This document shows, one piece after another, positions 31,568 through 64,000 of a stretch of DNA of 64,000 nt (positions within the stretch are counted from its first letter, which is position 1; every line of letters begins with the position of its first letter). The notes under the pieces were generated by a model that was not told the DNA's origin, searched no databases, and saw only the letters and a program-made list of their open reading frames with translations. The position numbers and the translations under genes are program-made. The stretch comes from Phoronis australis. Its lineage: Eukaryota > Animalia > Phoronida. The stretch lies in assembly GCA_002633005.1 (NCBI GenBank), contig NMRA01000157.1, positions 122,331-186,330 of the forward strand, written 5' to 3'.

Positions 31568-32200
31568 ACAGACAAGGTTTCTGTCTCCACGCCAAAAATG
31601 AGTGCCCTGAGCGGCATAAGGTCGCCGTTGGGGTCAACTTCCTAAAGAGGGCGTATTCGGTGTCGTCCAACTGGCTATTCAGTGTTCAATCAAGAGGTAG
31701 ATCGCATAAGACAAACACTGGTGAATAATGGGTATACCAATGCTTTTGTGGATTTCCATATTAAGTGATTTGTGTCCAGAATTAGCCATGAAGTCCCTGT
31801 TCGTCGGACTGGTGTCACCAAAAAGATATTTTACAAAAATGTCATGTCTAATAATTACCTCCAGGACGAACACGCCATTAAGAAAATTATAAGGGACATT
31901 GTTAAAGTTTGTAAGCCTGATGATCACCTCGCTGTTATTATTTATTATCGGAATAGGAAGTCCTCCAACTTGGTCATGAAAAATAACATTTCTAAAGCGA
32001 AAGTCCGCCCCGTTGCGCAGTGTAGTGTTGTTTATGAGTTTGTATGCCCTATGAACGAATGTCTTCGTTCAAACGTCAAACAATGTTACATTGGTCAAAC
32101 GGTTTGCAGTCTTTTCCGTCGGTTATCCATGCATCTTCAAAATGGCGCCATTCAAGATCATTTTCTGCAATGCCACGCACGTAAAATCACCCCTCGGGCG
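31568..32200 (+). pseudogene. Penelope-like retroelement fragment (RT thumb plus GIY-YIG endonuclease)
   Basis: GFCLHAKNECPERHK...FLKRAYSVSSNW...EVDRIRQTLVNNGY, followed by VVYEFVCP...YIGQT...LFRRLSMH (ORF 31772-32230). Contains a frameshift and a stop. Confidence 0.85.
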
Positions 32201-32487
32201 ATAATTCTCCAAAATCCACTCGGGTTCTAGATAACGGGGGATAACGACTTCGCCATGTAATAATCTATATTTATATTTATGTTTAATCCACTGGGTTCAA
32301 ATAAGTTAAGCTTAACTATCCAAAGTTGTTCTCTTTTGAGTCTGTGAGGGTTACTGGGGGTATTGGAGTTTTTCTGTTATTTGGACAGAAAGATCTTGTA
32401 GATTATGATTTTTGGAATTGAAATGATGTTTTGAGGACCGACGATAACATGTAAGGCGTATGGATTTCTACTTTGCACTACTTCGTG

Positions 32488-34946: not shown

Positions 34947-35613
34947 AGTCCTTCTTGCAAACTGCCCATGTGGTTCCAGTATCCGAAAATACTTACTACA
35001 TAAATTCTTATTTTCGACACCCTTTCTTTATATTCTTTTCGCCTTTCTTGCCAAAAGCGATTTTTTAACAATATTTGACCCTTCTCTCTGAGCGTATGAT
35101 TACCGGTTGTCATCGGTTATTTCCGTACCCACAATTCCGGCTCATCAGTTCAGGAACTTGTCCTGAACGCCGCCATTTTTTCCTTGTAACTGAATGTGCT
35201 ATGGCTTGCTCGAAAAGTCTTCATTATTTTGTTTTATTAGTAATATATCGTGANCCGCGGCAGTGTGACACAGGACTAACCAGCCCGTAATTTCATGCAG
35301 GTGTCTGAAACTACCCTTGAATATATGCAGCATTTATGATTTGACCATTTTACTTCGACAAAGCAGCTTGCAACCGCATGCATTTACCGTTCGCCAGTGT
35401 CGGCTGGTCTCGATCCGCACCGGGTCCGATAGGCTGCGGTCCCGAGTCTGGCAAAATAATTTCTGTCAAAATTTATTCGCCACATTTCTTCATCAAATTC
35501 GATAAAATTGTCCGTAGTTTGATTTTATTAAAATTAAGGCGCGCTGTCGATTATTTTATCCCCGTTTGCAAGCTGGTAACAGGCACTAGTCCATCCACAC
35601 TGACGGCGTTTTC
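34947..35613 (+). mobile_element. Kolobok-type non-autonomous element, partial copy
   Basis: Starts TTAA|AGTCCTTCT and matches 52134-52439 and 53239-53599. About 800 bp is missing exactly at the single N (35254). Confidence 0.8.
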
Positions 35614-39589: not shown

Positions 39590-40288
39590 TTAAAACAGCA
39601 ACAATGCTTCTTCCATGCTGTCGAAGTACTTTGAATGAACAAGAAATCGACATAATTTATTAATAGCCCCACATCTTGATTCGTCTGACGTCATAGCAAG
39701 GAGAACCGGGTGTAGATATGTAGGTTTTTCATACAGCATTTCTGTCGTAGTTTTCGGTCCTAGGGTCACCATCCCGACATCGTAGCCTTTAGCATTTGAT
39801 AACATATGACCGTATGCTGTTTTCAACTTGTCTGTGCGCCTAATCAAATCGAAGTAATAGGCAGCCACGTGTGCTTTGGGCTCAATCTTTAACTCATCGG
39901 AAGAAAGATTTATGCCACAGTGGAGCTTTGCATTTATGACACCAGCATCATTGCCGTACGCTTCTTCAAGTAATGTACCCATTTTAGTACCTGAAGGACG
40001 TGGATTGATTTCGATTAACCTTGGCCAGGCGTTACCTTTGTCACGGATAAGTTCGACGTTGTACACCCCGTGGCGAAGACCGACGGCTAGAGAGCACTGA
40101 TACGAAGCTTCAACCAATTTCTCGTTCATCTTTTCTGAATCGCCACCAGGAATGGTGACAGAAGTGTTCCAAAAATCCGGTAGTGGGGGAGGGCCTCTCT
40201 TAACAATGAAGCCGCCAACAAGTTTTCCGCGGGAAATCACCACGTCAACTGAATATTTGACACCTTTCAGGTATTCCATCACAAGCAC
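39590..40288 (-). CDS. ATP-grasp ligase (carnosine synthase 1-like), last coding exon
   Basis: Acceptor ttttcag|GTG. Encodes VLVMEYLKG, GVYNVEL and PRLIEINPR (ATP-grasp C-domain) and ends in a TAA stop. Confidence 0.9.
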   Translation of the reverse strand: MLVMEYLKGVKYSVDVVISRGKLVGGFIVKRGPPPLPDFWNTSVTIPGGDSEKMNEKLVEASYQCSLAVGLRHGVYNVELIRDKGNAWPRLIEINPRPSGTKMGTLLEEAYGNDAGVINAKLHCGINLSSDELKIEPKAHVAAYYFDLIRRTDKLKTAYGHMLSNAKGYDVGMVTLGPKTTTEMLYEKPTYLHPVLLAMTSDESRCGAINKLCRFLVHSKYFDSMEEALLLF

Positions 40289-40775
40289 CTGAAAAATAAA
40301 GAGTACCTTTGGTGAGCGACTCGATATTCGCTAAGTAGTACCAATGAAGAAAGGTACCTCGGTTAACATCCGGACAGTTTAGGGCAAAAGCATGAGAGCT
40401 TTTGTGTTGCCGTGTCTCGTGCGATTATCAGAATACTTGTATTTCTATGGGCATGACTCTTTCCTCGAATAGGACCATCTAGCGAATTTCGACTTTCCCA
40501 TTTTGAGCTCATTGAGCTGCATAAAAATTGCTTTTGCCGCAAACTGAGGTTAATTACGCAAAAATTTCTCAACAAAAATTTTCCAAATTTTGAAACCACC
40601 AGGAAGTTCGTTTGTGACTTATTAGCTGAGTGCCTGGAGTTTGAGAGGTATGAATGCCTATGAAAACAGTGAGAAACAAAACGTGTTTACACGGAATTAC
40701 CTTTCTGCTGTTGCTACAGAGAGTTTGCTTATAATACCTTCTGTCCACCCTAAAGCACTAAAAATCAAATCTTAC

Positions 40776-49576: not shown

Positions 49577-52133
49577 AGCTCAGGTGAGATCCATGAAGTG
49601 AAGTGTGAGATATAGAGTAGTCAGCAGCTGGTCATCACCATAGTTGCAGGGTCACTGAGCTCTGCAGCTCTCAGTATTTATTACTATTATTTATTTATTA
49701 TAGTGACATAAGGGTGCCAGTAAATACAATCTCAAAGACAGAATATTCACCACACCCCCCAGCCTCAAGGGGCTTATTCAGTCACCTAATAATAATTAAA
49801 CCATTACATAATATGTTGCACACGCTCAAATATGACCACTTCAGACTAGTTTATAAACAAATACTTACTTCTACCCTGCAAAGCGTCTTGAATGAATTTC
49901 GCTAAACCTTTCAAGTTATTTTGGAATATTTGAGGTAGGGCAGAATTCCGTATAAAAATGTTCGAATGTGAGTATATTTTTCACAATTATCAAAAATGAA
50001 ATGAACATAATCTTCGATTCCGTTTTAAAAAACACGACAAATCCGTTCATTCACAGGAATTCCGAAGTACCGCCCCATCTCAACCTCTAATGGTAGAATA
50101 CTTGCTCTCAGTCCAGCTATGACGGACCTCTGAGACAACACCGGCAGACGTAAATACTCTTCCATACAATAGTCATTCTTAACAGACCTACATAAGCACA
50201 GTTTTGGTTTCTCAATGATTATTTTAACCAGTTTAACTCTTGTAACTGGAACTTGAATGTTTTGAAGTTTTCGAGAGACACAATTTGTTCCTGAAGTTTT
50301 CTAAAAAATCGCATTTCTCCATAATTTTAAATATTGAACTTGACCAATTGCAGGAGTTCCGATGTTTAAGGTCCCATAAAAATACTTTTTGAATTAAACG
50401 ATTCCAGAGCCTTAGCCTATTTTCATGTTGTTTGTAGTGTGAATTTGGCCAACCTGAGTCGCCATAAAGTACTGCATTGGCAGCATACTTGTGGACCCCT
50501 AAGAATATACGTAGTGTTCTCGTTCTGATCATTTCGCATTTGGAGTATTGAGAGTATCCCCAAATTCCAGAACCATATTCTAGAACTGAAGCTACTGACA
50601 TTTCAAAACATTTACTGTAACTGCTGAAACCCATGTTATCAATATGTTTGTACTTGCTCACCAGAGCTCCCAACCCTCTAGACGCGGAGTCTGCCAGTAT
50701 CTCAGCTATCAAACTGAAATCCATAAACTCGTTCAGAGTTACACCCAGATATTTATAACATTCTCTTAAATTCACAATGCGATCGCACAAAATGAATTCA
50801 AAACTCGTTCTTACATGTCCCCTCTTGCGAAAATGAACCACATCAGTCTTAGAAAAAATTTACAGATATTTGCCACATTGCACACCAATTACTCAATACG
50901 CCCAGCAAATCCTGTAAATAGGTTTCATTACCAGAAAAAAAAAACACAATGTCATCGGCATACAAGAAACAGAATAAATAACATCCATCAAAACTGACAC
51001 CTTTGCTAGAACTGTTCAAATCATCAATCAAATCATTTATGAAAGCTGAAAACAATGTAGGCGACAATGGATCTCCCTGCCTAACTCCTCTTCGTACTGG
51101 GAACCAGTTGGTATAATCTGACTGATTTAATTGTACACAGGCTTCTGTCTGCGCATGCAACGATTTTGCTGAGTGATAAAATTATCCAACCACTCCTAAA
51201 TTAATTAATTTTTTCAATAAAAAGTTTCTATCTAAATTGTCAAAAGCCCGTTCTATATCAACGAATATCGCAAACGTTGGTCTATTTCAAGCTATTCTAT
51301 TTCTAACAATAGACATGAGTGTGAACACGTGGGTCAAGACAAGACCGCCCTTGTCGAAAACCATTTTGTTCTTCATTCAGTCTGTGTTCGATATTCAGAA
51401 ACTCGGTTAATCTCCTGTTTAGTACATTACAATACACTTTGCTCACGGTGGAGAGCAAGCGTATGCCTCAATAGTTGTTCGGTAAATTCAAATCTCTATC
51501 TGATCCTTTAGGTATAGGGGTGATAATCGCTTTGTACCATAATAATGATATAAATCCAGTGTCAAAGAACTTCTGAAGGAGCGAGACCAGAATGTCAATC
51601 ATCTCTGAGGATCTCAGCGCTTCGTATGGGATCCCGTCTATACCAGTGGCCTTACCCGATTTTAATTTGCGAACAGAATAAAATTCAAAAAACGAAAAAC
51701 TTTTTTCCAGTATTTCTTTTACATGACCCGAAAGTTCAGAATATTGCATTGCTTTCTCCAAATCCTCTACGTTTTGACTTTCAGCCATTGGAATTTTCGC
51801 AAATAAATCTCTAAAACTGGCCTCCCATCTTTCTGAAGGAATAGTATTTTCATGTCTCTTCTTGAGCTGAGGTCCTAAGTTTTTGAGTTCCTTCCAAAAA
51901 AACATTGGGGTCATTTTCACATGATTCTTCAATCAGTGTTAATTTACTTTTCAAATATTGCCTTTTTAAAAACCTGAATCATTTGTCAAAGCAATATCTA
52001 GAGTTCTTGTATTCATACAGTCGCTCCCTTCGTCGTTTAGTATTTTTTTCTTTGAGAAATACTTTTTCTTTTTTGGACACGTTTTTCCAAAGTTGCGTTA
52101 ATTCGTCATTCCAAAAGGGCTTGTATGCCTTAA

Positions 52134-53808
52134 AGTCCTTCTCTCAAACTGCCTATGTGGTTCCAGTATCCGAAAATACTTACTACATAAAATGTTATTT
52201 TCGACACCCTTTCTTTATATTCTTTTCGCCTTTCTTGCCAAAAGCGATTTTTAACAGTATTTGACCCTTCTCTGTGAGCGTATAATTACCGGCTGTCATC
52301 GGTTATTTCCGTACCCACATTTCCGGCTCATCAGTTCAGGAACTTGTCCTGAACGCCGCCATTTTTTCCTTGTAACTGAATGCGCTATGGCTTGCTCGAA
52401 AAGTCTTCATTATTTTGTTTTATTAGCAATATCTCGTGATTCGTTTGCATATGTAGTGTATTTATAGTTTGTAGTAAGTGGTCGTTGAATTTTTTTGAAA
52501 TGTTACGCGTACTTAGTATGTTAAAATAGCACTGGTGTTTAGTTCCTTACGTAGGCCGGTCGAACCTAGGAACCAATATGGGTCGAACCAATTTTTTTCG
52601 GTTTTATTTTTTTCCTCGTTTTGAAAAAGTACTTTGCTATCATCGGAAAGGTAGTACATTCTACTCAGTAAAAATCGAAAAAGTATCAAAATCGGGGCAA
52701 GCACTGTAAAGTTATTGCAAGTTTTGTGGCGAAATTTGGGTCACTTTGTTTGGATCGCGTCGGCCATATTGGAGGACAGCGGGATGAGTTACGAGTTTAA
52801 AACTTTGTGTAAATTGTTTTCGCCAACAAATTACGGTGAAATTTAGTTAGACATATCTTTACTTACTATTCTGCACGATTTAGCAGTGTTCACCAAATTT
52901 CAGCCTCGCAGTTGTTACTCATTAAGTGATAAATGTGCTCACAATTCCCGTTGGACTTCGTCTCATTTCTGGCGGCACCTACAATGTCGACTTTTGCTGA
53001 ACTGAAAGGCATGTTCAATCGGCTACTTTGTAATTTGTGAAGATTTAACGTTGATACATTTTGACAAACGTTGCTACAAAAAAGAAACTTTGTTCAATTT
53101 TCGTGTTTTTTGTGTTTGTGGCCAGCGACCAGTTAGGCCTAAGGGTAGTCTTGGCGCAAAGCTGTCTAGGCCTACTAACAAGCTGTATTTTGACTATAGT
53201 CTTCACTGGTAGCTGGTGACTGAGGCTAACTAGGGTCTGCCGCGGCAGTGTGACACAGGACTAACCAGCCCGTAATTTCATGCAAGTGTCTGAAACTACC
53301 CTTGAATATATGCAGCATTTATCATTTGACCATTTTACTTCGACAAAACAGCTTGCAACCGCATGCATTTACCGTTCGCCAGTGTCTGGTCTCGATCCGC
53401 ACCGGGTCCGATAGGCTGCGGTCCCGAGTCTGGCAAAATAATTTCTGTCAAAATTTATTCGCCACATTTCTTCAGCAAATTCCATAAAATTGTCCGTAGT
53501 TTGATTTTATCAAAATTAAGGCGCGCTGTCGATTTTTTATCCCCGTTTGCTGGCTGGTAACAGTACAGGCACTGCTCCAGTCGCACTGACGGCGTTTTCT
53601 CGGCCTGGGTTCCTGAATGAATTGTACTTCCGGGTTCGCGGCAAGTTCAAAATGGCGGTGTTTCTTCGGGTGCGAATCGTGAGTGGCGCGTTCATTTAAA
53701 CTTTTTTCGAGTACGGATCTTGTATTAGTTATGGGGTAAGTACTTCTTGGATCCTTATAACATCCTCTAACCATGTAATAAGGGTTAACAACGCGTGAGA
53801 GAAGGACT
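52134..53808 (+). mobile_element. Kolobok-type non-autonomous DNA transposon, full copy
   Basis: TTAA TSD (52130-52133, 53809-53812) and TIRs AGTCCTTCTCTC / GAGAGAAGGACT. Excision restores LINE ORF2 RKRFK-AYKPFWN. Confidence 0.9.
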
Positions 53809-54679
53809 TTAAATCTTTTTCTCAGATTTTTATTACAACTTTGAGTACATCTTAAATGCAATTCTGTTTCTGTTTTATAATTTCGCAGAAGGAGTTATAA
53901 ATCTCAACGACTTTATAGTGTCTTCGACACTCATTTTCTAATATTAAAAGCAACTCTCCAATCGCCCTTTTAAAAATCTCATTATCCATGAATTCACCAG
54001 GGATAGAATTTAATTTAAACCGTTTTCTAAATCGCATATCAAAGGAGTTATCTGTACCGTGATCTTTAAGAGTTTCGTCACTGATATTTACTGGAACGTG
54101 TAGCATAATTTCTACTAACAATACATTGTGATCAGGCAGTTTTGACTTTTCCGATAATAGACCCCGGCTGTAAAAGATGTTTGTCAACTACCTCTGTACA
54201 AACATAAACCTCAAATATAGGACAAGATTGAAGCCACTAATGGGGGACAATAAAGTAATCTACAACCGCTCTTCCTCTATGACTTATTGAGGTGAAGTTA
54301 TCTTTACTTATCTCTTTCCTACCATTGACTATGCAAGTTTTAGAACCGAGGTAAAAGTCAATCAAACTTCCACAATGACTATTTAAAACTTTATCGTTAA
54401 TTTACTTGACAATCAACATGTGGAATGTAATCATTCAAGTTACCCACTCTCGAGTTAAAATCTCCACATATAAAAACGTCATCTGCTATATCTGCATGTA
54501 AATATAACTGGCATAATAGATGGCTATAGAAACTATCTGGATTACAACTCCTTGAAGAATTCTCAGGTGGTAAATAGCAACAAAATACAACTATACAATA
54601 GTCTGAGCGTATATGAGTTAGTCTTAAAGCTAATATACCATCACACGACTTGTCAACAATATCTATTATATAAAATGCA

Positions 54680-55639
54680 TCGTTTGCACAAACTCCGTCT
54701 CCCCTGCTCCACTACAGATCTTCGTTGCGCCCGTTTCGGCACTGCCTTGGTCCCAGGTATTGCACCGGCCCCCTATTAGAATTTGAGCTGTCTTATATTT
54801 TTTCTCGCGGGCCGTTTTTTGCGGACGCGGAGGGAGGGTGGCCAGCTTCGTACTGGCCCTGGTGACGTCAGTCGGTCGGCTTAATTTCGCTCCCTCCGGT
54901 ATATAATTCATCGGGCCTGTCGCTGCCCAAATTAATGATGCCTTATTAAAAATGTTTACTCTTCCTTGGGTAAACTAAAGTATTTACCCGGGTGTTGGAA
55001 CACTGGCGTTCTTCAGTTATTCTGCTGCTAAAATTGCCATGCGCTCTTTGGGCGCCATTGCGTCACCTATTGGCCAATTTCCATGTTCTTCAATCAACTG
55101 CGAGGTTGCGTACAGATCATAACAATTGGAAGTGGTTTCGTTTCGTTACTGGTTTTTACTTCTTCAATCAACTGCGAGGTTGCGTACAGATCATAACAAT
55201 CGGAAGTGGTTTCGTTTCGTTACAAGTTTTTACTCTTTTAATACCAGAACTCAATTTCAGATCAAACTCTCGAAAGATATCGCAAAGTTTTAGGAAATGG
55301 CGCGTAGGCCTACGTGCACCTGTCACGAGTATGCACTGTTTTCAAAACGACGACAGATTTTCCTTTGTTAACGTTTAATAGATTTTTACTTCAATAAACG
55401 GCTGTAACGGGCAAGGTGAATGTTCTAGAAAGAAATTTGTACGTACTGCCTGCGGAAAGAATCCCGCAGCCGCACACCTTGCTTACTAATATCTGACAGT
55501 GTCTGAAACTCTGCTTGAAGCTTTGAACACGGTCTCTTTAGTAATATTCCTGTCTCTTGCGATGAACACTCGGTTCACTCTTAGGTGTAGCTATTTCCAG
55601 TCAGTGTTTCCCACTAGCTGCTACCCGGGTAATGGCTAG
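54680..55639 (+). mobile_element. Non-autonomous Helitron-like insertion
   Basis: A|TC ... CTAG|T junctions with no TSD and a subterminal palindrome TACCCGGGTA. Removal rejoins the LINE APE domain (SKIDAFYIIDIVDK). Internal 64-bp duplication at 55086-55149 and 55160-55223. Confidence 0.65.
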
Positions 55640-56357
55640 TCAATTTTACTATATGCTTTACACAAATCATATTCCCACCCCACCCGAACCTCTTGGGGCC
55701 CGCTTGTTTATAAGCTGCCTATTGTGTCCGTACCAACAATAACCGGGCAAAGTAATAGATTTATTTGCATGTAAATGAGTTTCTACCACCCTTATGATGT
55801 GGGCGTTGAATGTAGACAGCAGTTGTTCACGGAGCAATGAATTGTTGCTAATCCAACCACAGACATTGGCCTCGCAAATCCTCAAAACGCTGTCCTATTC
55901 TGCATCACGAATTGTTTTATTCCCCGAGTGAGCCTCCTCACCTGTGGTCACTCTCACAATTCAACCATTTGAAGGGATCTTGAATTCCTTGTTGTTCGGC
56001 AAAGTTTCAATAATTGTTTTGAAATTAATTTCAATTAACCTGCCAGTGAGAGATTTGCTTCCACGAAGAAAAACTCGTTGAAATAAAAGCGTGCCCTTTA
56101 AATTTTGCTTGTTCCGCAGCACTAAAAGTTTTTGAGCCAGTAACTCAACAGCATCAGTATCCCACTGTCGAGGGTTCAGACGGGTGCAATCCAGTTTGGT
56201 CACATCTGAAGACAGGCCCATACTACATAACAGTTCTTCAATCACTTCGCGTAAAGGTCGGGTTCCGTTGACTATGCCTGATGCGATAATACACAAGTCA
56301 TTGTTTTTCAAAGGGTCGTTCTGAATGACTAAATCTGAACCATGCGTGTAATGCTTC

Positions 56358-56662
56358 TGTAGTAAATGTCGACGTCAGTCTCGGCTGTGGCGTCTCTATG
56401 TTGTGATGTCCTTTTCGTTAACAATGTTGGTCTTGGCCTTGTGCGACATCTGACGCCAGAAGATCCCAGCCGAGGTCACCCTGATATCATGTGACCCGTC
56501 ACCTTTCAAGACCACGTGACAAGATAGTCTGGGCCTTCTGGAGTTCGCTGCCGTCCTGGGCGGACGTAATGTAAGTATACTCCGGACTTTTCTCTTGCAT
56601 CGCGTTAATAGGCCGAACCTGTGTGTCTGCTTGGCCAGCCGACCCCTATTACTAAGACAACA
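56358..56662 (+). repeat. 5' LTR (305 bp)
   Basis: TGTAGT...ACAACA, a direct repeat of 60975-61277. Confidence 0.95.
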
Positions 56663-56664
56663 TT

Positions 56665-56678
56665 TGGCGTAGTTGGCA
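56665..56678 (+). promoter_or_regulatory. Primer-binding site, tRNA-Ser type
   Basis: TGGCGTAGTTGGCA, 2 nt after the LTR. It is complementary to the tRNA-Ser 3' end (...UGCCGACUACGCCA) with one G:U pair. Confidence 0.85.
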
Positions 56679-56994
56679 CCTATTTCACGGTGTTGGAGCG
56701 GCGTGCGTGTCTTTCGGTGGTGGCGGGAAATAAGTTTTCATAACTTGTTTTCTCGTGCCCATTTTGACAGCCACGTGCGTCACTTCTTTTGCAGTGCCCG
56801 AGTTCAGGTTTACTAGAATTTCAAGCGTTTGTCGTAGGAATTATAGGTTTATGTAAATAGTTGGTATAATTGTATATAGTATAGTTTGTATTTATTATTT
56901 TGTATATTAGTTAGAGTTTAGAACCTTTCTAGGAATTCTAGAATAGGTCACGTGACCACGTGGTTTTCCTAAGACAAAGCCCCGTGTGTTTAGT

Positions 56995-58416
56995 ATGTCT
57001 TTTCAAGACAGGGTTCCGGTAAACTTCTGTCTTTCCCAAGAGTTATTCAAGCTCTCGGGCATGACGGAAGATACTGCTCAAACCATTCTGGCGTTTCGGC
57101 AAACTCAGCCGATAACTCCAGAAAATATTAACCACATCCATTCCGCATGGAGGTTGACGAGGAGTGCTATTTCTGGCATTGATTTCACCCAGTATGGTGA
57201 TGTTCAGTCCCGAGTTACCTCTCCTCTGGGTAGTCCTGTACGTACCCGTTTGCCCCAGGACTTAAGTGGCATTGCCCAGGCCTGTGACAGGTTAAACAAA
57301 TCCCCTGTTACAGTAAGAAGGAAGTATTCTACTAAGCAGGATTCTCCTTCGTCTGTGCCTGCCCCGAGTTCTGGTAGCCGAACGGTTGGTCCGTCTACCC
57401 ACACCCGTCCCTATAGTTTAAGGCCAAATGCCCCGTCTAAGTTAGTTTTTCAATGGGAAAAAGGCAAATGGGAGGACTTTTTTGGAAATTTCAGCGCTTA
57501 GCCAAGGACAACTTATGGTCCGAAGACAAGTGCGTCTCTGAGTTAAGAATGTGTTTGGACGATGTGGCCTTGCATTTCTTCCTTAACTTCATGAGAACGA
57601 ACCCAGACTCTGGTTTCGATGACGTGGTTGCACACATGTCAGAACATTTTTCTTCGACTGTCTGCACCCAGGTCTTACGCCTTGAATTCCAATACGTCGA
57701 GCAAAAGCCGGGGGAATCTATTGAGAACTGGGCGTGTAGGTTAAACAGGTTGTTTTTAAAAGCCTTCCCGAACCCGTCGGAGCAAGAAAAAGTAGATCTT
57801 GTATTCCGTTTCTCCCTTGGGTTACGAGATAAGGTTGTAGGTACGCAGGTGATGAACTCATCCCCTGTGACCCTAGCTGAGGCAGAGTCTAAAGCTGCAT
57901 GGTTCGCAACGACCCAGCGATTGATGGCAAATCAAAACCGTCGGTCTGTTTGGTTCGAGGGCCCACCATCGCGCAATGACGAAGCTTCTATCAACCTGCA
58001 CTTAAATTCTGTCCAATAGCATCCTCTGCTTCAAACTCTGCGGTTGAGTCTAGGCTGCATGCTTTAGAGTCTCAGATGGCTAAGGTCAACTCTGAAATAG
58101 GAGGTCTTAAAGAAGACAATGCCCTTATACATCGAGAACTTAAGAGTATATCCCAGACTATGAGTTCGAATTTTAGGGGCATTACCCCAGATTTGTCGAG
58201 GGTATTAAAATTGTTGGATTCTAATCCAAAACCATCTAGATCCCCTCCACTATCTAGGTCCCCCAAACTTCCCCACAGAGACCTTCAGTAATGTGTGGTA
58301 AGTTTGGTCACTACCAGTCTGCGTGCCGTAGCCCGCAGCCTGCTAGAATTCTTCGTACATCCTTTGGGGATAAGTCCGATGATTTAAACGAGTTGGGGCT
58401 GGACGATCAGGTCTAA
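56995..58416 (+). pseudogene. Gag (HhH-like N-terminus, capsid domain, coiled coil, degenerate zinc knuckle), three frameshifts
   Basis: WEDFFWKFQRLA..WS...L...A, EFQYVEQKPGESIENWACRL and FSLGLRD capsid motifs, and CGKFGHYQSAC at 58294-58326. The pieces are ORFs 56986-57501, 57453-58019 and 58076-58291. Confidence 0.85.
58383..58389 (+). promoter_or_regulatory. -1 ribosomal frameshift slippery site T TTA AAC
   Basis: In X XXY YYZ phase with the gag zinc-knuckle frame, 9 codons before the gag stop. The -1 frame opens here, right after a TGA, and runs into ORF 58428-58895. Confidence 0.75.
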
Positions 58417-60086
58417 CTCCATCCCAATTGCAATCTCGTGGTGCCAATAGTAGGGTATCCTCAGACCGCCCCACTAAAAGATTCAGTCCCATGGATGGTC
58501 TATTAGGTTCATTAAATAAAAACATCAAACGCCTGTCGACTAACCTGTTAGACTGTTTTAAAGTACGGAGTTTGTCCACTTCTTCTCGAGGTATTTCTGT
58601 GCACGATGCGTGTCGGGGGAGAGGTCGACCTGTCTTGGCTAGATCTTGTGATGTAGTTAATGATTTGGTTGACTTGTCGACTGATATTCTTTGTGCTCGG
58701 AATTCCCTGGGGGATATGGAGTGTCCGGCCTCCCAAAGTTCCGTGCTCACTCAGAATAGTCCGATTGAATTACCCATTACTGATGCTGATGTGATTAATA
58801 CCCCAATATTGGTTCAGGTTAATTCGATAGATAAGTCTGAGTTGAGTGGTAAAGCTGTTTCTAGTACCCAGGTTGTGGCTAATTCTAATTCATAAGATAT
58901 TGTGCATACCCTGGTTCCGGATTCCATTTCAGAGGGGTCAAAGGTGCCCCACAACCCTGTCGTTTTGCGGGATCCACCTCCTGAGTTTGTAGATGCCCCT
59001 ATGGACACTATTAATATTCAGGAGGCGTCTTCTGGTAACACCCTACACCAACAGGCTGGCCGTCTGCTTCACTGGAGGCAGAAGGTCACTCTTCCACAAA
59101 GGGTGAGGGATGCTGGTTCGCCATACCCTCGGATGTCGTGTGTGGAAAAGCCGCCAGCCACCTGGCCTGCCCCTAAAGGGTCGACGTTCATCTGGGGCTT
59201 CGCCGTCCGCATCCAAAGTTAAATCAGGACCGGCCCCTGATTTGGCTATAGATGCCCACTTCCATTTGGATCGCTTGTCGGTATCCTTGGCTCAGCGTCA
59301 TATCACTGAGAGTAGGATGCTGACGATTGACCAGATGCTCAGCGCCCAGCTGCCACGGGTTTCTCAAAAACCTGTACGGTTGGTCGGTGGGATTGCAGTT
59401 TTCTGCGATGTGGAAAACTGGAAGTACATTGAGGCTTCCCGTTTCCCACATGGCTGGAAGGCTGTGGTGGGCATCCACCCCAAACTGGTTGGAACAACAA
59501 ATCCCGGTGTTCTAGAGCGTCTCCCTCAGCTACTAAAGGAGCCCTTTGTAGCTGGCCTAGGCGAGGTCGGTCTGGAGGCCCGGGAGGACTTGGCCAAACA
59601 AAAAGAAGCTTTGGAGGAGATGGTGCGAATCTTTGCGGAGGTTCGGGCCAGCTCCCCCAGCTTCAAAAACAAAGTCGTGGTGATCCACCTTCGTGGTTCC
59701 CCCGACAATCCACGCTTCTTGGAGGGACAAGACTTTGTCTTTGATCTCCTGAAGACTGTGATGCAGACTTGGGTTTGCATCTCCATTGTTTTGGAGGTGC
59801 GCCCGAGGATGTACTCCGATGGACGTGGTTCTTTAAAAACTGCCACTTCGGCTTTGCCGGTCATGTGAGGCAGTTTCTAAAGTTCCAAAATAAGGGGTTA
59901 CAAGAGGTTCCGCTGAATCGACTCCTCCTGGAGTCTGATTCACCGCACCTCGCCATTGGGCAATCCCCAATGGCCCCCAGATACCTGGGGGAAGTAGCTA
60001 TGGAGGTGGCGCAGCGTTCTCGTCGTCCGCTGCGTGACATCCTGGCTGTTTCCACCAGGAATGCCAGGCGGCTTTACCATCTCTAA
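58383..60086 (+). pseudogene. tatD: Second ORF in the pol position: S/P-rich linker plus TatD-family nuclease (domain about 59242-60086)
   Basis: DAHFHLD, GIHPK, GLGEVGL, VIHLR, HLHCF, LLLESDSP and NARRLY motifs. One premature TAA (58893) and two frame changes (about 59100-59220 and about 59768). Confidence 0.92.
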
Positions 60087-60960
60087 CAAATTGTTAGAAG
60101 TGGTTTAGCATCCTGGTGTGCTTGGGTCATAACTTATGCCCCAGGTTGTCGCCTAGTCTCCGGGGTAACTGCCCGTTATTGTAAATTATGAGGCGGACGT
60201 CAGTCTCTGGGTTTGTGCCTTGCCCTTGGTCCTAAGAGAATTGTGGTGTCCACTAAAGTAGAATAAGTAGTTAAGTAGCGTACTGGTCCAATATTTTGTA
60301 TAGTAGTGCTTGTTCATTAAAACTATATAGTATAATTATTTTTGTTATAAGTTATGTTTCCATACTACATATATGGTCTATTTATATATTCAAGACTGTT
60401 TTTTCTATAGTATTATGTATTAGTTGATGCTATATAGTTTATTTTTGTATATTAAGTTAAGTTTTCCATATAGTCTACGTATGTTATGAAAGGCTATATC
60501 ATTTTATATTTCACTGTATCACTACTAAAGTATAATGAATACTCATTTTATGGCCAGTATGCTTTTCATTGTTCAGTTTTTTTTAAAAAAAAATGTATAT
60601 ATTCTCTCGCCAGGTCATCACCAACAATCAGAGTGTTGTCATAGCATAGTCCAGAAATTCCATGCTCCCTGGTACTTGTATTAGTGGGGCATATTTTTCT
60701 TTTTTTCTTTTTTTAGTATGTTCGACTACTCTAGTGGATATATGCTATGACTGTGTGTCTCGTTAGTGTTTGTTTTTTTGGTAGGGGGGAGAATAGTTGG
60801 ATTTAATTTTAACCAGTAATTGGTACTTTACAAGGTCACTCCACATCATGTTAGTTATAGGGTTTAAGGTCTTGTCACTGTTATCTTAGGTCAAGGGTTT
60901 ATGTTTAGATGTTGGGAATGACGTTCGCCATTTTCTATAAGGGCTGCACTCCTTTTCTTT

Positions 60961-60974
60961 AAGGAAGGGAGGAA
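60961..60974 (+). promoter_or_regulatory. Polypurine tract
   Basis: AAGGAAGGGAGGAA immediately before the 3' LTR. Confidence 0.9.
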
Positions 60975-61277
60975 TGTAGTAAATGTCGACGTCAGTCTCG
61001 GCTGTGGCGTCTCTATGTTGTGATGTCCTTTTCGTTAACAATGTTGGTCTTGGCCTGGTGCGACATCTGACGCCAGAAGAGCCCAGCCGAGGTCACCCTG
61101 CTATCATGTGACCCGTCACCTTTCAAGACCACGTGACAAGATCGTCTGGGCCTTCTGGAGTTCGCTGCCGTCCTGTGCGGACGTAACGTGAGTATACTCC
61201 GGACTTTTCTCTTGCACCGCGTTAATAGGCCGAACTTGTGTGTCTGCTTGGCCAGCCGACCCCATAACCAATACACA
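60975..61277 (+). repeat. 3' LTR (303 bp)
   Basis: TGTAGT...ATACACA. I count 9 substitutions against the 5' LTR, plus a divergent last 15 or so nt. Confidence 0.95.
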
Positions 61278-61680
61278 CTTCTCCAACGCGCTGACACGGT
61301 TTTCGAGACATGCAAAATCCATGTCAATATCCGCCTTGAAGGATTTTAGTTTGATATCAGTAGAATTTGTAATCTCATGGCGTATTTTATCTATTTTGGA
61401 TTCAAACGTTTTTCTAAGCCCATCTTGTGCCGACTTTAGATCTTGAATTTCTTTCAACATGAGTTCAGATATCTCACCTTGATGATCACGTGGAGCTGGA
61501 GAGGTCGGCATGCTTGATATAGCTTCACTAATTGTAGGTTGAGAATTAAACTTTTTGTTACTTTTATCACCTGTACGGTTCATGGTTGTCCTTAACTCGC
61601 TACTGTCCTTGCTTGGTTTACGTTAACGTACAATTTGCCACTCAGAATCATCCATTGAATTGGAGCAAATTTAAAAATCA

Positions 61681-62640: not shown

Positions 62641-62889
62641 TGAGGTCTTTGTTCAGTACAGCTAAACATGTGAAACATACATTCACAAATAGATCTGTGC
62701 ATGTGAATTTGACGTATGGTAATAAAGACACATTGTGTGTATATACTTCGTCGTATTACCACCATCACATTTGTGTGCGGGTGAAATAACTATAAAAATG
62801 GACGATCGAAAAAGAATGAAATGCGATCAACATAGGTGGCAATAGAAAATAATGTAAAGGACGGAACGGTAACTTTTTTCTCTGTGGTG

Positions 62890-63180
62890 AACTCTATCGA
62901 TAGACTTATTAACTTTATCAATATACATATTAACTCTATCGACAGACTTATTATCTCTATCGATAGATTTCATTTCTCTATCGATAGACTTACTATCTCT
63001 ATCGATTGACTTATTAACTCTATCGATAAACTTACTATCTCTATCGATAGACTTATTGATTCTATCGATAGACTTATTAATTCTATCAATAGACTTACTA
63101 TCTCTATTGATAGACTTATTAACTCTAGTGATAGACTTACAATCTCTATCGACAGACCTACTATCTCTATCGATAGACTT
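62890..63180. repeat. 21-bp minisatellite with palindromic core CTATCGATAG
   Basis: About 14 tandem units of TCTATCGATAGACTTA(TTAAC/CTATC). Confidence 0.92.
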
Positions 63181-63386
63181 TGTACTCCACCAAAGCAGCA
63201 GACGAAACCGAGGTCGGTTCCTCGCTTGTATGATTGTTTCATTAAGCTTCTGGGTAGGAATCGCACATGTTTATGTCTACGCTACATGGTGAGTGTTGCT
63301 GAACTGCTTACTGTTGATCAATTAACGGGCGGGGAACGAGCACGTAGATCGTAATCTGCTTCATTTCGTGGGTTTGTGCCTGTTAA

Positions 63387-64000
63387 AGTCCTTCTCTCAC
63401 GCGTTGTTAACCCTTATTACATGGTTAGAAGATGTTATAAGGATCCAAGAAGTACCTACCCTATAACTAATACACGATCCGTACTCGAAAAAAGTTTAAA
63501 TGAACGCGCCACTCACGATTCGCACCTGAAGAACCACCGCCATTTTGAACTTGCCGCGAACCCGGAAGTACAATTCATTCAGGAACCCAGGCCGAGAAAA
63601 CGCCGTCAGTGCGACTGGAGCAGTGCCTGTACTGTTACCAGCCAGCAAACGGGGATAAAATAATCTACAGCACGCCTTAATTTTAATAAAATCAAAATAC
63701 GGACAATGTCATCGAATTTGCTGAAGAAATGCGGCGAATAAATTTTGACAGAAATTATTTTGCCAGACTCGGGACCGTAGCCTATCGGACCCGGTGCGGA
63801 TCGAGACCAGACACTGGCGAACGGTAAATGCATGCGGTTGCAAGCTGTTTTGTCGAAGTAAAATAGTCAAATCATAAATGCTGCATATATTCAAGGGTAG
63901 TTTCAGACACTTGCATGAAATTACGGGCTGGTTAGTCCTGTGTCACACTGCCGCGGCAGACCTTAGTTAGCCTCAGTCACCAGCTACCAGTGAAGACTAT
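63387..64000 (-). mobile_element. Kolobok-type element, third copy, inverted and running off the window
   Basis: TTAA|AGTCCTTCTCTCACGCG, the reverse complement of about 53195-53808. Confidence 0.9.

Follow-up and report, generated by a model that had tools for sequence, protein, structure and literature searches.

A stretch of 64,000 nucleotides of the Phoronis australis contig NMRA01000157.1 (hereafter the window, whose own numbering is used throughout) contains an element of 4.9 kb with long terminal repeats (LTRs), which carries gag and a second frame that ends in a TatD nuclease domain. All features of the element lie on the plus strand. The 5' LTR (56358..56662), with TG...CA ends, pairs with the 3' LTR (60975..61277), and the two were 97% alike over 289 nt, with 12 mismatches and one gap over about 302 columns. 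A 4-bp target-site duplication, CTTC, is present on the left (56354..56357) and on the right (61278-61281). A stretch resembling a primer-binding site and starting TGGCG (56665..56682) begins 2 nt past the 5' LTR, and a polypurine tract was found at 60961..60974. The former presumably matches tRNA-Ser; no tRNA gene with which to compare it was found in the 64-kb window. We consider it probable, if well short of certain, that the window contains an old and disrupted copy of a Gypsy family without pol, and that younger members of this family likely make a Gag-linker-TatD fusion at an inherited frameshift signal after a probable deletion.

The gag frame (56995..58416, about 474 codons) has a helix-hairpin-helix N-terminus, a PNMA-type capsid, a coiled coil and a CCHC knuckle. 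Its Pfam matches were weak and below the cut-off (HHH_3, E 0.006; PNMA, E 0.0015), and comparison with the gag of relatives by tblastn gave E 2e-22. Among named protein relatives, Gag led to Mytilus and TatD to Ptychodera. In this copy gag is disrupted near 57477, 57992, 58259 and 58292, and the CCHC knuckle is also broken. The second frame consists of a linker of about 289 codons in the -1 frame (58383..59250), interrupted here by a stop at 58893 and a frame break at 59145-59150, and of the TatD domain, which is of the HxH (group II) type (59251..60086) and has a frame break near 59754. The copy in the window is dead and unable to make a Gag-linker-TatD fusion. Profiles of the protease (PR) and the other pol domains of relatives, namely reverse transcriptase (RT), RNase H (RH) and integrase (IN), found no match in 134 frame pieces of the element, and a tblastn search with the pol of relatives found none in the whole window. 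The element lacks the PR-RT-RH-IN order of an autonomous member and is a non-autonomous Gypsy derivative. The target-site duplication and polypurine tract indicate that the element integrated normally, by enzymes provided in trans; the duplication shows that such enzymes (the protease, RT and integrase of a helper) were available.

The first-pass annotation had predicted a -1 frameshift signal joining gag to TatD, and the sequence bears out its description of the site. The slippery heptamer T TTA AAC (58383..58389) stands in the gag phase (X XXY YYZ), gag reading GAT TTA AAC GAG ... GTC TAA with its stop at 58414-58416, 24 nt past the heptamer. The -1 frame is shut just upstream by TGA (58380-58382) and has no ATG at its start, the first ATG of this copy being at 58491. 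With 338 canonical slippery sites on the plus strand of the window, the presence of a heptamer says little by itself; the probability that one falls in phase within the 34-nt overlap of the two frames was 0.028 for any canonical heptamer and 0.00065 for TTTAAAC. Folding of the region downstream was unexceptional in this copy (z -0.68 to -1.50 in four folds), and its minimum-free-energy hairpin, GAGTTGGG/TCTAACTC, leaves no spacer after the heptamer. This hairpin was the first of two pairings that had been proposed, and it was dropped as a stimulator because relatives of the element conserve the alternative; the second proposal survives as a conserved stem with a 6-nt spacer. That stem (stem 1, 58396..58425) pairs 58396-58403 with 58418-58425 around a 14-nt loop and starts 6 nt past the heptamer. 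Seven of its eight pairs are formed in this copy, and, by eye, the letters that other copies have at 58422-58423 would give full pairing. A candidate stem 2 of a displaced pseudoknot (58409..58467) would join the loop positions 58409-58413 to 58463-58467; in relatives the partner of stem 2 lies 11-17 nt after stem 1, whereas here the only 5-bp partner is 37 nt away and at chance level.

The relatives came from a scan of prokaryote genome bins, which yielded 16 loci of animal retrotransposon DNA lying within symbiont bins. Six of these loci (L083, L084, L086, L088, L089 and L093) span gag, pol and a separate third open reading frame (ORF3) that ends in TatD, and in the two cases where pol was scanned its order was PR-RT-RH-IN-PHD. 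Twelve contigs chosen among the best of 89 gag matches in these bins were added and one decayed locus, L157, was excluded, which left 17 gag ends from two bins, representing many families but few host species, with TatD seen on the same element in six. An in-phase TTTAAAC was present at 12 of the 17 gag ends, an 8-bp stem in the same register (at least six of eight pairs) after a 6-nt spacer at 15, and a GGCC/GGCC second stem at 14; two of the 17 were missed or poorly called by the junction scan. Variant heptamers were C CCA AAC, G GAA AAC and G TTA AAC. The junction pseudoknots of these relatives (L083:1208-1272, L084:1309-1372, L086:1961-2030, L088:1354-1420, L089:1183-1246, L093:691-754 and those of L158-L168) are very regular, running from heptamer through 6 nt to an 8-bp stem, a 14-nt loop and GGCC/GGCC. 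A search of Rfam over the element gave no match, so the junction pseudoknot of the clade looks like an undescribed family.

In an ungapped alignment of the window with the six relatives, stem 1 was paired in 94.6% of 56 cells and three pairs showed change on both sides. None of 500 shuffles reached the paired fraction or the covariation score of the stem and 33 of 500 reached the count of two-sided pairs, although these statistics are inflated by kinship and the structure was itself derived from the sequences tested. When the stem was slid along the alignment the paired fraction dropped to 22-63%, and RNAalifold recovered the same stem 1. Both frames also match those of relatives across the site, with DLN..G in gag and FKR.VG in the -1 frame. 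Judged by homology, T TTA AAC at 58383 is a genuine inherited gag-pol -1 junction, and the conservation of heptamer and downstream structure, on which the first-pass annotation had made its prediction depend, is borne out by these relatives as well as by the other copies in the species described below. In the same relatives, the Gag of the clade starts with a helix-hairpin-helix and the integrase ends in a PHD finger (L086:12-1985, L084:1309-5583). The bins, which are titled as bacterial symbionts (Sedimenticola, Ca. Thiodiazotropha), contain many animal retrotransposon contigs, including 76 gag-profile matches in the bin G001 (L081-L096, L097-L168), and the ORF3 and Gag proteins of such contigs carry bacterial protein names in NCBI.

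Other copies in the species were examined by aligning four sequencing runs to 56900-60200 at 80% likeness, with 58300-58520 examined separately in all four. Two of the runs were sets of DNA contigs from a single sample, possibly the one from which the window itself derives, and two were RNA runs of another study, for which 18-19% of each run was read and 381 and 237 reads aligned, a low depth. The variants listed over 56900-60200 are all those found apart from 346 substitution entries, 5 length entries and 57 loose ends. The stop at 58893, whose retention in other copies would have made TatD a separate reading frame, was absent from all covering depth in the four runs (contig depth 517.9/517.9 and 109.8/109.8; RNA reads 16/16 and 29/29). 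Length differences at 59145, 59150 and 59754 were present in 83-94% of contig depth, by arithmetic in amounts that match the frame offsets, and were supported in RNA by 4/7 and 3/5 reads at 59145, by 3/6 and 2/3 at 59150 and by 15/39 and 1/9 at 59754. The gag breaks were absent from the high-depth contigs, and the sole length difference listed between the stem and 59036 preserves the frame. The expectation that the frame is open from 58383 to 60086 failed for this copy, at 58893, 59145-59150 and 59754; these breaks are absent from most contig depth. In young copies the -1 frame is, on this sequence evidence, likely open for about 567 codons into TatD.

The stretch 58523-59036 is spanned without gaps by a contig of depth 485, which overlaps another, of depth 644, across the slip site; most copies thus lack pol as well. 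Depths were 485-797 for the main contigs and 28-67 for divergent pieces, which suggests at least ten similar copies, depth being no copy number. Some low-depth contigs share the TatD side and differ upstream of window positions 59037 and 59096; such contigs may derive from a helper element or from other families. Over 58378-58421 there were none of the 17 variants listed over 58300-58520 in the four runs (p 0.02-0.03). Sites that vary among the other copies within 58300-58520 were at third positions in five of six cases in gag and three of four in the -1 frame (pooled p 0.003). The ATG at 58491 was absent from all covering depth in all four runs and is private to this copy, so the next candidate start in other copies lies 111 codons into the -1 frame. 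At the junction, all first mates of one RNA run lay on a single strand, as would be expected of sense RNA in a library of the common stranded kind.

The two halves of the TatD domain matched PF01026 with E 7e-11 and 2e-13 (42.4 and 51 bits, cut-off 27), and the six metal-site residues are kept (HxH, Glu, His, His and Asp, near 59257, 59263, 59563, 59686, 59784 and 59937). A sequence search of the PDB matched the C-terminal half to YcfH only (E 0.003) and gave no match for the N-terminal half, for which an Atlas search returned TatD. In a tree without host TATDN proteins, the TatD of the window fell among the ORF3 TatDs, apart from eight bacterial TatDs (100/100). Fresh capture of TatD was dropped as the simplest history, on a tree that included no host TATDN: autonomous relatives carry TatD as ORF3, and it would have been moved to the place of Pol by deletion. 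In these relatives ORF3 is about 500-970 aa long, with TatD at its end and a conserved zinc-finger/HWR middle domain. A more distant group of TatD open reading frames of 500-590 codons (G001:C1247, C1189, C535 and C889; L151-L154) was also seen, one of them 6 kb past a gag match; it may represent another TatD-bearing clade.

Over 254 codons of the linker the -1 frame has a single stop, where 12.7 were expected (none of 5000 shuffles had so few), and the other two frames have 10 and 28. In relatives the slip site and the protease are 95-341 residues apart, which makes a pol leader a sufficient source for the first part of the linker. For the second part, the middle domain of ORF3 in 38 relatives is bounded by a Cys-x-Cys-His-His motif and, 105-120 residues later, an HWR motif, and the linker of the window has CP at 58722 and LHWR near 59067 in the -1 frame, 115 residues apart. 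The window scored 3.6 bits on a profile of this domain, a score reached by one of 500 shuffles, with motifs picked post hoc; the profile detected 39 of 41 held-out long relatives. A broader ORF3 profile gave E 0.25 against the linker, and the zinc ligands of the middle domain are mostly lost. This moderate evidence, from profiles and motif spacing, suggests that the linker is likely a pol-leader-like start followed by an eroded remnant of the ORF3 middle domain. A remnant of protease or of another part of pol was considered for the linker and rejected on the profiles and tblastn. The most likely history, to which we give somewhat better than even credence, is a deletion of the pol enzymes and the front of ORF3 that left TatD in the -1 slip frame. 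Such a deletion would have removed PR-RT-RH-IN-PHD together with the ORF3 start codon and N-terminal part, and would have fused the pol leader in frame to the remainder of ORF3.

TatD might instead still be translated as a separate, ORF3-like protein, from a spliced or subgenomic RNA on which the downstream ATG at 58716 or 59001 serves as the start, with the slip site a relic or an extender of Gag. The linker has ATGs at 58491, 58716, 59001 and 59133; that at 58716 stands directly ahead of the eroded zinc-finger-like motif, an AG lies a few bases before 59001, and in all ten relatives checked ORF3 follows pol in its own frame with its own ATG. The 111 codons from the slip site to 58716 are nevertheless free of stops and in the same frame, and the ORF3 N-terminal profile found no match in the window (461 of 500 shuffles scored as well). 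No splice-type joint was listed over 56900-60200 in the two RNA runs, of which 18-19% was read and whose depth is low, with 57 loose ends unlisted, and donors upstream of 56900 would appear only as such ends. Taking both sides together, expression as a separate gene seems to us quite improbable.

Several observations weigh against translation of the fusion in young copies. Among the differences of the main linker contig, 31 of 38 are among the unlisted entries, so new stops in young copies are possible; another length difference, near 59099, occurs in about 20% of contig depth; RNA backing is weaker for the difference at 59754 than for the others; and over TatD the first mates lie more on the plus strand than on the minus, unlike those over gag. 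No contig spans the whole stretch from gag to TatD, and one contig of depth 32.6 departs from the window after about 58534, rejoins it at 58857 and by eye appears to carry an early stop of its own. If the young copies were closed by stops among the 346 unlisted substitution entries, frameshifting would give a short extension of Gag and nothing else, and the old contig with its apparent stop could be an example. On the other hand, all checkable breaks of this copy are absent from most contig depth, and no listed difference in the linker makes a stop by eye, which leaves this explanation with very little probability.

Other observations also count against the preferred reading. The branch of the window TatD is long (1.63). 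There is no stem 2 partner here at the usual distance, so frameshift efficiency may be low. Listed differences between this copy and the rest fall at third positions in one of eight cases in the linker, compared with 12 of 25 in gag and three of six in TatD; the sample is skewed towards changes private to this copy, and the lack of third-position bias in the linker would be expected of a spacer and of a neutral stretch alike. A second pol-less Gag-TatD family was not found in the protein and locus searches. Of the 150 TatD matches, 57 were scanned in Pfam and none of these had a capsid domain (one had a CCHC knuckle), BLAST of the window gag and linker pieces against all 150 gave no match, and PF01026 was on record for none of 73 gag matches, although a frameshift product is not expected in such protein predictions. 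Longer proteins were also sought in two word-indexed searches, one with the TatD half and one with the capsid, and neither returned any, which is weak evidence; a search of viral contigs gave no relative, and a metagenome scan of 2 of 64 parts gave mostly weak, bacterial-looking matches. The locus L157 (G001:C1280) was tried as a second case and rejected: it is decayed, its Gag is in frame with a protease, the stretch from RT to integrase is missing, and its TatD is broken. It shows an internal deletion with a decaying TatD in this clade without any function.

The fusion might instead be a by-product, a fairly recent deletion having joined two coding stretches in frame by chance, with TatD giving the element nothing. 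The spread of the element would then be owed to its LTRs, primer-binding site, polypurine tract and perhaps Gag, which make it a good passenger, and the fusion might even be translated. An in-frame join has a chance of about one in three, so that alone it is no proof of the functional integration argued by the first-pass annotation, and the invariance of the junction is weakly significant and lies partly within gag. The weakened stem 2, the unbiased linker and the decayed L157 also speak for it. Such drift is harder to reconcile with a middle domain that has become nearly undetectable in a frame that stayed open with its Cys-to-HWR spacing inside the range of relatives, with the retention of all six metal-site residues, or with the third-position changes at three of four variable sites early in the -1 frame. 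We judge the by-product explanation unlikely.

Under the preferred reading, in which young copies make the fusion, most ribosomes would terminate at 58414 and yield Gag (about 474 aa), and a minority would slip and yield Gag-linker-TatD of about 1030 aa, with the linker acting as a stop-free spacer and not as a folded domain. By way of its capsid domain, the fusion would be incorporated into particles whose protease, RT and integrase come from an autonomous helper. Within them TatD would most likely work on the intermediates of reverse transcription, either as a 3'-5' exonuclease or by trimming hybrids. These last two steps, particle co-assembly and action on intermediates, are the weakest of the mechanism. 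TatD enzymes are 3'-5' exonucleases and apurinic/apyrimidinic endonucleases (PMC10085689), and TATDN2 has been reported to degrade the RNA of R-loops (PMC12754012); from these activities, trimming or clearing of reverse-transcription intermediates is the best guess. A stronger proposal is that the nuclease was selected in its rewired position: made as Gag-TatD at Pol-like levels and active in mixed particles, it would edit or destroy the intermediates in particles shared with the helper and so tilt replication towards its own element or against the helper. This we regard as possible but doubtful. If the preferred reading is true, pol was lost and TatD kept under the dosage switch of Gag-Pol, which would place the enzyme inside the particle. 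It would be a compact system of one short frameshift signal and one nuclease domain, and would be an instance of a frameshift signal that outlasts a deletion and comes to control the dosage of a different gene. If the by-product explanation is right, the element is merely an internally deleted one of modest interest.

The surroundings of the element contain other repeats. A dispersed repeat of about 620 nt, with 94-98% identity, is present at 53196-53812, 63383-64000 and 35255-35582, and flanks the element in inverted orientation. A tandem array at 62850-63222 has a 21-bp unit with a palindromic core and is open in several frames. On the minus strand, a frame of 246 codons (39590-40330) resembles what we take to be an exon of an ATP-grasp enzyme. 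Fragments at 50233-51932 (-), 54397-54711 (-) and 31769-32230 (+) are presumably of the reverse transcriptase/endonuclease of long interspersed nuclear elements and of GIY-YIG type.

In the literature outside Repbase, most subscription journals and supplementary files, no paper was found on TatD in LTR elements, on a Gag-TatD fusion or on a Gypsy clade with TatD in ORF3, and a term search of a survey of mollusc LTR elements returned no passage with 'nuclease' or 'ORF' (PMC6238403). The closest known systems share parts of the arrangement. Known -1 frameshift signals combine X XXY YYZ with a 3' structure 5-9 nt away, and U UUA AAC is among the most shift-prone heptamers (PMC5009743). The site described here resembles Gag-Pol frameshifting of Ty3/Gypsy elements and retroviruses in heptamer class, phase, 6-nt spacer, stem and overlap of gag with the -1 frame (PMC5009743). 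It differs in that the -1 frame is without protease, RT, RNase H and integrase and leads to TatD, and in that stem 2 of the pseudoknot is weak or displaced. The element has a Gag homologous to that of the autonomous Gypsy relatives with TatD in ORF3 (helix-hairpin-helix, capsid and CCHC), shares their frameshift signal, and its TatD belongs to their clade. It differs from them in lacking pol and the front part of ORF3, in the erosion of its middle domain and in the position of TatD, which lies in the -1 frame of gag. In the gag-onc fusions of defective, acutely transforming retroviruses, a captured host gene is joined in frame to gag in the place of pol, and the virus depends on a helper. The likeness is helper dependence and another coding sequence joined to Gag at the place of pol; the cargo here is the clade's own accessory gene, and it is reached by frameshifting.

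The Juno and Vesta LTR elements of bdelloid rotifers carry a DEDDy 3'-5' exonuclease of unknown role as ORF3, and the role of enzyme-type ORF3s in LTR elements has been called open (PMC5408684). They are alike in being LTR retrotransposons that bear a nuclease with intact catalytic residues, and unlike in that their enzyme belongs to another family and stands in a separate ORF3 past an intact pol in autonomous elements (PMC5408684). Their layout, a separate reading frame with its own start after an intact pol, is absent here and present in ten relatives. PEG10, PNMA3 and PNMA5 are domesticated metaviral gag genes with a retained -1 frameshift, and in them too a gag-derived protein is lengthened by frameshifting without a full pol (PMC10516033). 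They are, however, single host genes, of which PEG10 extends into its own protease and PNMA3 and PNMA5 into no known domain (PMC10516033), whereas the present element has LTRs, a target-site duplication, many copies and a nuclease as the extension. Group II TatD nucleases (YcfH, YjjV, TATDN2 and TATDN3) have the HxH motif and Glu, His, His and Asp ligands (PMC10085689); the TatD of the window shares these metal ligands and PF01026 with them, and is set apart by scores far under the TIGR00010 cut-off (31 and 40 bits, cut-off 206), by being borne on an element and by its predicted fusion to Gag.

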